DNA of 64,000 bases from Flavisolibacter sp. (lineage in GTDB: Bacteria > Bacteroidota > Bacteroidia > Chitinophagales > Chitinophagaceae), in assembly GCA_045805145.1 (NCBI GenBank), contig JBJMLU010000130.1:5392-69391 (forward strand), written 5' to 3'. Below, in pieces: positions 54,828-55,987 of the stretch (position 1 is its first letter; every line of letters begins with the position of its first letter). Under the pieces are notes generated by a model. The model was not told where the DNA came from. It did no database searches and saw only the letters and a program-made list of their open reading frames with translations. The translations under genes were made by a program, and so were the position numbers.

Positions 54828-54962
54828 GGCGCGATGATCGTAAAAGGCGGAAGGAATTCAACGCAAAGGCGCCATGACGCGAAGAATATTTTTGGAGGTT
54901 AAAGAAAGTAAGGGCAGAAGGATTGATTGTAATAAAAACTGGAGGAAAGATTCCGGTATGGT

Positions 54963-55349
54963 TCAATAGTTATTCACTTTTCTTTTAAAGCCCTCCTTTA
55001 ACAGCGATACATTAAAATTGATCAAAAAGCCCAGTTGTTTGTTTGCCAATCTCAGGTAAGACAGCAATTGGGCTTCGTGTACTGTAAGCAATACTTCTAC
55101 TGATTTGATCTCAACGATAATTTCATCTTCCACAAGCATATCAATGTAAAAAGATTTTCCTGTATGCTGCCCCTTATAAACCAAAGGCATATGTAGTTGA
55201 TACTTTACTTGAATATTTCTTAATTGAAGTTCTTTCAGTAAAGCATATTCGTAAATAGATTCTAACAGTCCTGGTCCAAGGTATTTATGAACTTCCAGTG
55301 CTGAAAGAAAAATTTGCTTTCCCAAAAATTCACACCTTTCTTTTTCCAT
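54963..55349 (-). CDS. GxxExxY protein (PD-(D/E)XK nuclease-like)
   Basis: VHKYLGPGLLESIYEYAL, IDMLVEDEIIVEIKS, AQLLSYLRL..GFLINF. Confidence 0.93.
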   Translation of the reverse strand: MEKERCEFLGKQIFLSALEVHKYLGPGLLESIYEYALLKELQLRNIQVKYQLHMPLVYKGQHTGKSFYIDMLVEDEIIVEIKSVEVLLTVHEAQLLSYLRLANKQLGFLINFNVSLLKEGFKRKVNNY

Positions 55350-55453
55350 GATTTAAATTCCTTTCTAATCGATCTAGATTATTCTAGTAATCTAGCTCAT
55401 GGAATAAGTCATTCCTTGGTTTTTTTCTATTAAATCCTGGGAAAATTCTCTGG

Positions 55454-55906
55454 CTATTTTGTTGGTTGCTTATACTTAATTCTGGGAAAATTTATAACAT
55501 AGAAAAGGACAAAGACAAGTAGTTGAATTAGGAAAAATAAATAAGGCATCCGACTTGTCGCTACGCTACTATAATTTCTCCAGGCCGTGTATTTTGGGGG
55601 TTGAACCTGAGAATGAGTAGTTAACATGTACCAAGGAAAGAAAAACACAAGGACGACTAAACCACCCAATAAAAAATAAACAATCTTTTGGAGGATAGCG
55701 TTTTTTATAAGATAGGAAAACCGAAATAGGCAACAAAACACCGCCCAGGAAATCAGTTTTGCAATTAATCCTAAGTAAGGATTCATACCAATAACGAACC
55801 AGTGGTGAAACAAACCAGAAGGAATTCCCTGATAGAATAGAAATGTTAGTAGTTCAAACAGGAAAACAATGGCAAAAAAATACCACCAATCTATGATTTG
55901 TCTCAT
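55454..55906 (-). CDS. Hypothetical multi-pass membrane protein
   Basis: About four hydrophobic segments, AT-rich, no family recognised. Confidence 0.62.
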   Translation of the reverse strand: MRQIIDWWYFFAIVFLFELLTFLFYQGIPSGLFHHWFVIGMNPYLGLIAKLISWAVFCCLFRFSYLIKNAILQKIVYFLLGGLVVLVFFFPWYMLTTHSQVQPPKYTAWRNYSSVATSRMPYLFFLIQLLVFVLFYVINFPRIKYKQPTK

Positions 55907-55987
55907 GTATTGTAGTATTCTGTTAGCTCCGCTAATACTCCTAGCGCCCTTGCGCCCTCGCGTTAAATTCCTTGCGCCCCCTCACAT

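Follow-up and report, generated by a model that had tools for sequence, protein, structure and literature searches.

What is a small nuclease gene doing between inverted repeats at the meeting point of two host genes, and is it the partner of the gene-free palindromes that lie around it? The question is raised by a stretch of 64,000 nucleotides (the window, contig C130:5392-69391) from the genome of a Flavisolibacter sp. (5.48 Mb, 44% GC), in which a gene of the GxxExxY family occupies a cassette framed by inverted arms. GxxExxY/PF13366 is a very large family without an assigned function, found from Bacteroidota to methanogenic archaea. We propose to read the cassette as a gene-repeat module, in which a Cas4-like protein would recognise the short units that flank its gene and that are also dispersed as gene-free arrays and palindromes, and we see this reading as about evenly poised between right and wrong. 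That the nuclease also spreads the gene-free elements is possible, though on balance we doubt it, and that the window copy itself services the palindromes with which it was originally connected strikes us as improbable.

The ORF (open reading frame) matches TIGR04256 in a profile search (E=6.7e-39, 132.9 bits against a cut-off of 35) and PDDEXK_3, PF13366 (E=7.3e-38, 130 bits against a cut-off of 22). The name-giving motif of the protein is G27-L-L-E30-S-I-Y33 and its catalytic motif D70...E80-I-K82. Across 51 aligned homologues G27, E30, Y33, E40, D70, K82, Q94 and Y98 are invariant and E80 nearly so, Q94 and Y98 forming a Q-x-x-x-Y motif alongside D...E-x-K. The original prediction had recognised an intact GxxExxY gene with D..EIK residues, and the profile matches and conserved residues bear this out. 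An AlphaFold2 model (pLDDT 96), compared with the PDB by Foldseek, had Cas4 SSO0001 (4ic1, probability 1.00, TM about 0.5) and lambda exonuclease as top matches and no close structure; we found no sequence relatives with a solved structure. The protein is predicted to be a minimal Cas4/RecB/lambda-exonuclease-like PD-(D/E)XK nuclease domain with a restriction-endonuclease-like α/β core. The enzyme looks active, with its catalytic residues kept, a Cas4/lambda-exonuclease fold predicted and a proportion of non-synonymous differences (pN) far below that of synonymous ones (pS). PADLOC and PHROGs scans of the cassette yielded nothing beyond a weak PADLOC match of the GxxExxY gene to Cas4a2, so that the cassette does not belong to a known defence or phage family.

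The cassette sits where the 3' ends of a DUF2807 gene and an FAA-hydrolase gene converge (Table 1). Its two 61-nt arms are 74% complementary and bracket an insert of 1.13 kb, and the core of each consists of three 8-nt units: AACGCAAAG GCGCCATG ACGCGAAG on the 3' side of the gene (54860-54884) and, on the 5' side (55940-55964, read along the gene strand), AACGCGAGG GCGCAAGG GCGCTAGG, all of a CGCNAGG variant. Degenerate inverted arms had been reported to bound the gene, and they hold up against controls: under one scoring scheme, the local-alignment score of the arm pair is 21, a value reached by 0.2% of 474 control genes with 150-nt flanks and by 1.4% of 444 control genes with 700-nt flanks. 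The arms exceed chance. An ordinary small gene enclosed by an accidental inverted repeat, for which a complementarity of just 74% might speak, has a negligible probability: few controls reach the score, arms are kept in eight other genomes and the three paralogues of the gene are alike. We reject it on the orthologous arms, the cross-phylum arrays and the control scores.

In compact orthologues of the cassette, a few bases past the FAA-hydrolase stop codon come TTAACCGCAAAG ACGCTAAG ACGCAAAG and then the GxxExxY start codon, and the GxxExxY stop codon runs into CTTAGCGT CTTTGCGC CTTAGCGG TAA. Each side carries three 8-nt N-CGC-N-A-A-G units, inverted and abutting the start and stop codons. The arms in the window are a drifted version of this design, their units now being CGCNAGG. 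Overall, the unit consensus is N-CGC-N-A-R-G, about 8 nt long, with TT[AC]A[AC]C before the outermost unit, and the forms in play are AACCGCAAAGACGCTAAGACGCAAAG, the CGCNAGG variant of the window copy and the GTTTCACGC terminus.

The units travel with the protein across phyla. A homologue scan with one genome per species gave 80 loci with close relatives of the GxxExxY protein; the usable homologue loci numbered 77, with proteins 46-73% identical to that of the window, from Bacteroidota, Acidobacteriota, Planctomycetota, Chloroflexota, Pseudomonadota, Methanosarcinales and others. In 38 of the 77 loci the gene has two or more phased C[GA]C-N-[AG]-A-G units pointing inward on each side, and in 31 others on one side; the opposite orientation was found in one. 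The original prediction had proposed motif discovery in the flanks of many GxxExxY genes, and these flanks are indeed enriched, with arrays on at least one side in 69 of 77 homologues, whereas among control windows of these loci 12 of 409 have them. Across phyla, TT[AC]ACC typically stands before the outermost unit. Non-coding units that are conserved at 50% protein identity would need selection.

What this selection might act on, unit sequence or pairing of the arms, can be judged from the orthologous cassettes. In eight of them the CGC and A-A-G positions are almost invariant, the N positions variable, at a distance at which the synonymous sites of the adjoining genes have become saturated. 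Between upstream arms and reverse-complemented downstream arms, identity is 0.79 within cassettes and 0.78 ± 0.05 between them, and the sense-strand RNA duplex has −31.8 kcal/mol within and −30.1 ± 4.9 kcal/mol between cassettes (n=8-9, arms extracted by hand). The arms can pair, reaching about 60% of the pairing energy that a perfect duplex would have, and in these 8-9 cassettes their complementarity shows no compensatory upkeep. As identity and energy are the same within and between cassettes, the units look like protein-binding sites and not like a selected stem; in this small sample, selection seems to keep the unit sequence rather than cassette-specific complementarity.

The upstream neighbour of the gene is co-directional in 58 of 69 loci, at a median gap of 77 nt. 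Since, in addition, a scan for a promoter or terminator belonging to the cassette did not rise above shuffles and compact cassettes have no room for a promoter, GxxExxY is likely expressed by read-through from the FAA-hydrolase host gene. Such a position would also suit a selfish ORF that rides in an operon within an insulating stem, in the manner of the intervening sequences (IVS) of 23S rRNA: the arms would pair in polycistronic RNA or in single-stranded DNA (ssDNA) and loop out the ORF, the loop would be processed or tolerated without harm to the host operon, and the protein would not recognise the arms. Duplex formation between the two arms is possible in all nine FAA-slot cassettes (−26 to −44 kcal/mol), related cassettes lie in the nuo operon of seven congeners, and four-helix-bundle genes, whose family is found in the 23S IVS of Leptospira and Coxiella (PMC4990558), have the same architecture in this genome. 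We nevertheless hold the explanation to be quite unlikely. It would lead one to expect the cassette-specific compensatory pairing that is missing, and a stem needs no set sequence, yet one unit grammar accompanies the protein subfamily from phylum to phylum and recurs in about 100 gene-free arrays.

Within the present genome, all four GxxExxY genes are enclosed by inverted unit arrays. With 400-nt flanks, three of them are at or above the 95th percentile of 371 control genes; the window copy, with its upstream arm about 570 bp away from the gene, joins them when wider flanks are taken. The paralogues form two pairs: the window copy and the copy on contig C45 have a C-terminal NFNV..KEG and CGC-type units, the copies on C70 and C123 a common NFGS.SLQFKR and CCAGGATT- and CACGGATT-type units. 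Many arms in the genus use unit variants beyond the regular expression applied (CGCAGCG, CGCAACG, CGCTGAG).

Among 72 genomes of the genus, GxxExxY copies per genome range from 0 to 10. Two or more CGCNAAGRCGCNAAG arrays occur in none of the 10 genomes without GxxExxY and in 35 of the 62 with it (Fisher P=0.001), and the same pattern read backwards has about 0 matches. These arrays tend to be more numerous where the best identity to the C45-type paralogue is higher (Spearman 0.50; 0.40 in gene-bearing genomes; neither corrected for phylogeny). Genomes without GxxExxY do carry (TGGTGAA)3 arrays, 14 in G018 and 20 in G009; since heptamer arrays are present there, the lack of CGC arrays is motif-specific.

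Which gene, then, would the palindromes of the window belong to? Local inverted-repeat clusters number about 277 in the genome. Tandem arrays with a period of 6-12 number 2,895, and about 64% of these lie outside long ORFs. The window elements at 47.6 and 52 kb have arms of 71-105 nt that are 99% complementary, far more so than the arms of gene-bearing cassettes, and share a core of about 300 nt; they contain no ORF, and Rfam had no match across 45500-59500 at E<=0.1. For about 45 nt, their termini (GGTTTCACGCnAAGACGCAAAG) are colinear with the arms of the paralogue on C45, which lies between nuoF and nuoG, the left end of the 47.6-kb element being aligned after removal of a 20-nt palindromic insert. 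Both elements and a solo end near 49.2 kb share these termini; the arms of the window cassette do not. The pattern TTTCACGCNAAG occurs 112 times in the genome, its backwards control not at all. For the window cassette, the terminus GGAATT[TC]A[AC]CGC (with CGCNAGG units) occurs at 10 genome sites, two of them its own, and gene-free inverted pairs with the CGCNAGG variant and a GGAATTTACCGC terminus lie at C48:5907-6215 and C202:35908-36338. An exact search for AACGCRARGGCGC had no matches beyond the two arms of the window copy, so that the tie to other elements is one of unit grammar, not of a long shared word. The combination of a repeat-flanked gene with dispersed inverted doublets is strong for the nuoF-nuoG paralogue (112 termini) and weak for the window copy (about 8 others). 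To judge from these termini, the abundant GTTTCACGC palindromes of the window belong with the nuoF-nuoG paralogue and not with the window copy. The elements at 46.3, 47.6, 49.1, 52.0 and 58.5 kb had been thought to be of the same type as the cassette arms and the window copy to be their partner; the CGC-N-A-A/G-G grammar is common to both, but the termini match the C45 paralogue, which is the better candidate for the partnership.

A six-frame search with hidden Markov models, filters off, found no remnants of GxxExxY, four-helix-bundle or GIY-YIG genes in the gene-free elements, and there were no GxxExxY remnants elsewhere in the genome. As no gene remnants lie inside them, the gene-free elements are not recent deletion derivatives.

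Several smaller observations concern these repeats. The palindromic insert mentioned above, CCTGCCTGCCGGTAGGCAGG, lies at 47592-47611 and again at 58681-58700, with related copies about 50 times in the genome; it interrupts the left terminus of the 47.6-kb element and not the right. A further GGAATTTACCGC terminus copy is found in the window at about 40685 (C130:46076, minus strand). Two overlapping minus-strand ORFs (167 and 174 aa) at window 46533-47529, with a CGCAAAG-type repeat element on either side, by eye resemble a RES toxin and an Xre-family antitoxin.

GxxExxY is not the only small-gene family with this habit. Six four-helix-bundle genes (Avd/23S-IVS-protein-like) and three GIY-YIG genes likewise lie between inverted repeats in the genome; taking the three families together, 11 of 13 small genes score above the 95th percentile of controls. 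The unit families beside the first five four-helix-bundle genes in Table 1 rank 1, 3, 6, 7, 8 and 11 among 1,255 unit families and the GxxExxY units 12 and 20; the CTATTGA heptamer of the sixth four-helix-bundle gene forms a single array in the genome. Across the genus, the presence of a four-helix-bundle gene like that on C106 is associated with (TGGTGAA)3 arrays to a moderate degree (rho 0.37; 19/34 against 7/37), with exceptions such as G018. The GIY-YIG genes are Ssn-like and have a hairpin motif of the CGTCATTGCGAGCGAAGCGAAGCAATC type at their flanks; the genome contains CATTGCGAGCG 335 times. Their arrangement matches the published one of Ssn and SRM (PMC11893778). The CGTCATTGCGAGCGAAGCGAAGCAATC-type motif also builds large gene-free nested palindromes in the window.

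With so many repeats and so few genes, about 2,900 arrays and 277 inverted-repeat clusters for 13 small genes, one may ask whether the genes are passengers: arrays and palindromes would be made and spread by other enzymes or by host processes, for instance slippage or a switch of template at a terminator hairpin, and small genes would land or persist in them without any functional link between protein and arms. The unrelated palindromes in the FAA-side gap of different congeners (see below), the heptamer arrays of genomes without GxxExxY, the lack of GxxExxY remnants in gene-free elements and the concerted evolution of the arms of these elements, unlike that of cassette arms, all fit this explanation. 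We give it a low probability, since it does not account for the lack of CGC-type arrays in all ten congeners without GxxExxY, for a unit grammar kept beside window-copy-like genes in unrelated contexts from bacteria to archaea, for units that abut start and stop codons, or for the high ranks of the small-gene units in abundance.

A more far-reaching reading is that the three unrelated families of about 100-130 residues are convergent 'repeat-keeper' genes, each paralogue specific for its own 7-9-nt unit or hairpin, which together would account for a large share of the arrays and palindromic elements of this genome. We consider this rather unlikely. If it were true, GxxExxY would be the enzyme of minimal gene-plus-repeat elements that cross domains, are inherited vertically, ride in operons and seed gene-free copies.

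The age of the cassette can be followed at its slot. A GxxExxY gene directly follows the FAA-hydrolase orthologue in eight other Chitinophagaceae (L065, L066, L070-L073, L080, L082). On the FAA-hydrolase tree, the occupied loci are a five-member clade, two lineages basal to the genus, and this genome with its sister L065; the remaining 23 congeners examined have no GxxExxY gene at the locus. The fewest changes on this tree are three, compatible with ancestral presence and later losses. The GxxExxY tree, in which the proteins of different phyla are mixed, has the FAA-slot cassettes as a nearly monophyletic group. In every comparison with the window genome, the non-synonymous divergence of GxxExxY is 1.2-1.4 times that of the FAA hydrolase. 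As synonymous sites are saturated (pS about 0.8), dN/dS to the orthologues is not estimable and we used pN, pS and the ratio to the neighbouring gene. Given the two trees and a divergence in step with that of the neighbouring gene, the cassette appears to be a long-standing, vertically inherited resident under purifying selection, not a fresh insertion.

A DUF2807 orthologue adjoins the FAA-hydrolase gene in 17 of the 23 congeners examined, and in 12 of these 17 the two are separated by a gap of 57-162 bp without a GxxExxY gene. Most such gaps look like plain terminator hairpins, and a few are framed by short unrelated inverted repeats. Given these empty gaps, and in-frame stops in orthologues, the GxxExxY gene seems to be dispensable. 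Single in-frame stops, at differing positions in genes that are otherwise well conserved, were seen in L073, L080 and L082 (GxxExxY 2501-2884 each), L079 and L117, and several others were flagged in the genus search; all of these could be frequent pseudogenes or errors in the assembly of metagenome-derived genomes. The gap 3' of the FAA-hydrolase gene holds unrelated palindromes in L011, L018, L009, L017, L023 and L027, either GAACAGA arrays or TCTGAACCATGATTTGGGTAGAT arms that enclose a terminator hairpin. The convergent gene end after the FAA hydrolase is a recurrent home of different repeat elements.

Other slots tell a similar story. Cassettes like that on C45 lie in the nuoF-nuoG gap of seven congeners, and further conserved slots have their own unit variants; this occupation of orthologous slots across species implies that cassettes stay put for long periods. 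We found one relocation, of a lineage nested among the FAA-slot cassettes: in L067 and L069 it lies, arms included, in the interval from msrB to nth. After the upstream arm and ahead of the GxxExxY start, L067 (2395-2470) has a second inverted pair, degenerate and gene-free, TTAACTGATAAGAAAAGAGGTGCGAAGAATT / AATTCTTGCGACTTAGTGCCTCTACGGTTAA, that looks like an empty copy of the arms inside the cassette.

Such persistence at fixed slots, together with the low pN, could mean that the protein does recognise the units, but as a domesticated reader in the service of the host, with the flanking arrays mainly as autoregulatory operators. It might limit or direct the recombination of incoming ssDNA, mark self DNA or shape mRNA 3' ends; for the first of these there is a precedent in Ssn, which modulates natural transformation (PMC11893778), and the arrays lie mostly outside genes. 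A role of this kind is in our view unlikely, because the presence of the gene is patchy, with frequent loss, pseudogenes and 0-10 divergent paralogues per genome, and because the gene is AT-rich relative to the genome and its protein tree mixes phyla, which is more typical of selfish or accessory genes.

One part of the cassette is specific to this lineage. The cassette interior has a GC content of 30-37%, against 45-49% in the flanks, and between the FAA-hydrolase stop and the GxxExxY start lies a 150-residue ORF that had been taken for a membrane-protein passenger. It has no family match in Pfam, NCBIfam, PADLOC or PHROG and no homologue in 71 congeneric genomes or among 5.8 billion protein clusters, and it is missing from the orthologous cassettes of other genomes (L065-L082). 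We treat it as an orphan in a lineage-specific insert; a membrane-protein gene is unsupported.

Table 1. Features of the cassette, its surroundings and other repeat-framed small genes (window positions unless a contig is named).
Feature	Position	Strand	Remarks
DUF2807 (GIN-domain) gene	54021-54827	+	PF10988, E=7.8e-39; convergent on the cassette
Inverted arm, 3' side of GxxExxY gene	54846-54906		61 nt; paired with 55918-55978 by repeat search
GxxExxY gene	54963-55349	minus	128 aa, intact ORF; TIGR04256 and PF13366 matches
AT-rich spacer, orphan ORF to GxxExxY start	55350-55453		GC 30%; no convincing promoter
Orphan hydrophobic ORF	55454-55906	minus	150 aa
Inverted arm, 5' side of GxxExxY gene	55918-55978		61 nt; pair of 54846-54906
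FAA-hydrolase family gene	55988-56992	minus	PF01557, E=9.6e-50; upstream of and co-directional with the cassette
Gene-free palindromic element	47577-48260		arms 105 nt, 99% complementary
Gene-free palindromic element	52029-52660		about 15 genome copies, 81-93% identity
Four-helix-bundle gene	C106:34693-35076		own heptamer TGGTGAA
Four-helix-bundle gene	C64:57924-58346		own heptamers GGGAATT/GGAATTA
Four-helix-bundle gene	C215:26784-27173		own heptamer GAGATGT
Four-helix-bundle gene	C194:2403-2801		own heptamer AGTTCAA
Four-helix-bundle gene	C51:7290-7643		own heptamer GGCTGTT
Four-helix-bundle gene	C168:24671-25015		own heptamer CTATTGA
GIY-YIG genes / CGTCATTGCGAGCGAAGCGAAGCAATC-type nested palindromes	27881-28544, 37487-38012; C27:11016-11345, C57:5013-5315		

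Upon the observed anatomy, conservation, association and vertical history we build a reading in which the protein would bind or cut the units, and this binding or cutting would maintain or spread the gene-free elements. A minimal Cas4/RecB-like nuclease gene is framed by inverted arrays of three units of about 8 nt on each side, and these units would most likely be the sequence-specific recognition sites of the encoded nuclease. Placed just after a host gene, co-directional and with no visible promoter, the module would probably be expressed by read-through. It is an old resident of the FAA-hydrolase 3' flank and has descended vertically; it was lost from most congeners, and some relatives have it as a pseudogene. 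In the window genome the cassette has gained about 0.55 kb of AT-rich DNA with the orphan ORF, while its units drifted to CGCNAGG. Gene-free arrays and palindromes of the same units would be the non-coding partners of the nuclease, as REPINs are of RAYT and NTS/SRM of Ssn.

A number of results weigh against this gene-repeat module. The original prediction expected gene presence and repeat number to go together across genomes: the CGC-type arrays are confined to gene-bearing genomes, but among these their number does not scale with GxxExxY copy number (rho 0.05), and many of the genomes behind the genus correlations, which lack a phylogenetic correction, are incomplete. A within-genus table of subfamily against unit type is underpowered, with 55 of 59 loci in one subfamily and 4 in the second. 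Some of the covariation of protein and arms follows from shared descent, as the gene is physically linked to its arms. The arms of the window copy are degenerate, and three of the eight FAA-slot orthologues have one in-frame stop each. The window cassette gives no hint of having moved recently: FAA-slot cassettes, like those between nuoF and nuoG, are orthologous across species, and neither the window cassette nor its orthologues have a direct repeat outside the arms that would indicate a target duplication. The four-helix-bundle genes share the habit and are not nucleases, so nuclease activity may not be what spreads arrays. Finally, in the literature found by searching, no function or biochemical activity is given for the GxxExxY family.

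What is new here is the history of the orthologous slot, the constraint on the units as opposed to their pairing, the presence/absence test in the genus and the assignment of the palindromes to another paralogue. If members of the GxxExxY family do read and cut their flanking arrays, this would be the first functional handle on the family and a possible source of small, programmable-looking sequence-specific nucleases, and it would explain where much of the short-repeat and palindrome load of Chitinophagaceae genomes comes from. As it is the units and not the pairing of the arms that appear constrained, the idea lends itself directly to the bench, with three cognate units set against scrambled ones.

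Of the known systems with which the cassette can be compared, Cas4 and RecB nucleases are closest in structure, being the best structural match and having the D...E-x-K and Q-x-x-x-Y motifs in common with GxxExxY. The protein has about 60% of the size of Cas4, and since it contains a single cysteine it lacks the four-cysteine Fe-S cluster. Cas4 proper is ruled out by this cysteine count, and the immediate neighbours are the FAA-hydrolase and DUF2807 genes, with no CRISPR or cas gene. Insertion sequences with their miniature inverted-repeat derivatives, and transposons with subterminal sites, resemble the cassette in that terminal inverted repeats built of repeated units bracket a single ORF and shorter gene-free elements have the same termini; unlike them, the cassette has no recognisable DDE, HUH or serine/tyrosine recombinase and no visible target-site duplication, and cassettes occupy orthologous slots. 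The ORF-containing 23S rRNA IVS of Leptospira and Coxiella (PMC4990558) also have a small ORF between inverted repeats within a host transcript, an architecture that the four-helix-bundle family itself shows in this genome, but the GxxExxY module is not in rRNA and its arms appear constrained in unit sequence, not in complementarity.

RAYT and its REP/REPIN sequences were the model for the original prediction of a selfish system of nuclease and palindromes with a different enzyme. In that system every group of repeats goes with a gene copy of its own (Bertels and Rainey 2011, PMC3116915). As there (PMC3116915; Di Nocera et al. 2013, PMC3733652), the gene has its own repeats at its flanks, and inverted doublets without a gene, which can fold into hairpins, are scattered through extragenic space, often after genes; the gene is also vertically persistent, for GxxExxY in the dataset examined here. 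GxxExxY differs in not being a Y1/HUH transposase, the protein matching PF13366 and TIGR04256 only, and in unit arrays without a GTAG or CGTC tag. The general analogy is supported by the arrays around all four paralogues of the genome, by the association across phyla and genus and by the colinear termini; the tie of this copy to the listed elements and its supposed passenger are not.

A close parallel in habit is Ssn with NTS/SRM, GIY-YIG nucleases whose genes have copies of a dispersed repeat on either side and which cut that repeat (Chenal et al. 2025, PMC11893778). The idea that no such arrangement had been described is too broad, the habit as such being documented for Ssn. Both systems have a single-domain nuclease gene of about 100-130 residues with a short motif on both sides and tens to hundreds of copies in the genome, motif-rich genomes tend to carry the gene, and specificity varies among homologues; GxxExxY, too, has its repeat on both sides and is carried by repeat-rich genomes. 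They differ in fold, which in GxxExxY is Cas4-like PD-(D/E)XK and not GIY-YIG (cd10448), and in the repeat, which consists of three phased, inverted 8-nt units instead of the single hairpin of Ssn. For GxxExxY, a partnership of nuclease and repeats in the manner of RAYT/REPIN and Ssn/NTS is plausible and, if real, would add a third enzyme fold to such partnerships, after the Y1 transposase RAYT and the GIY-YIG nuclease Ssn.

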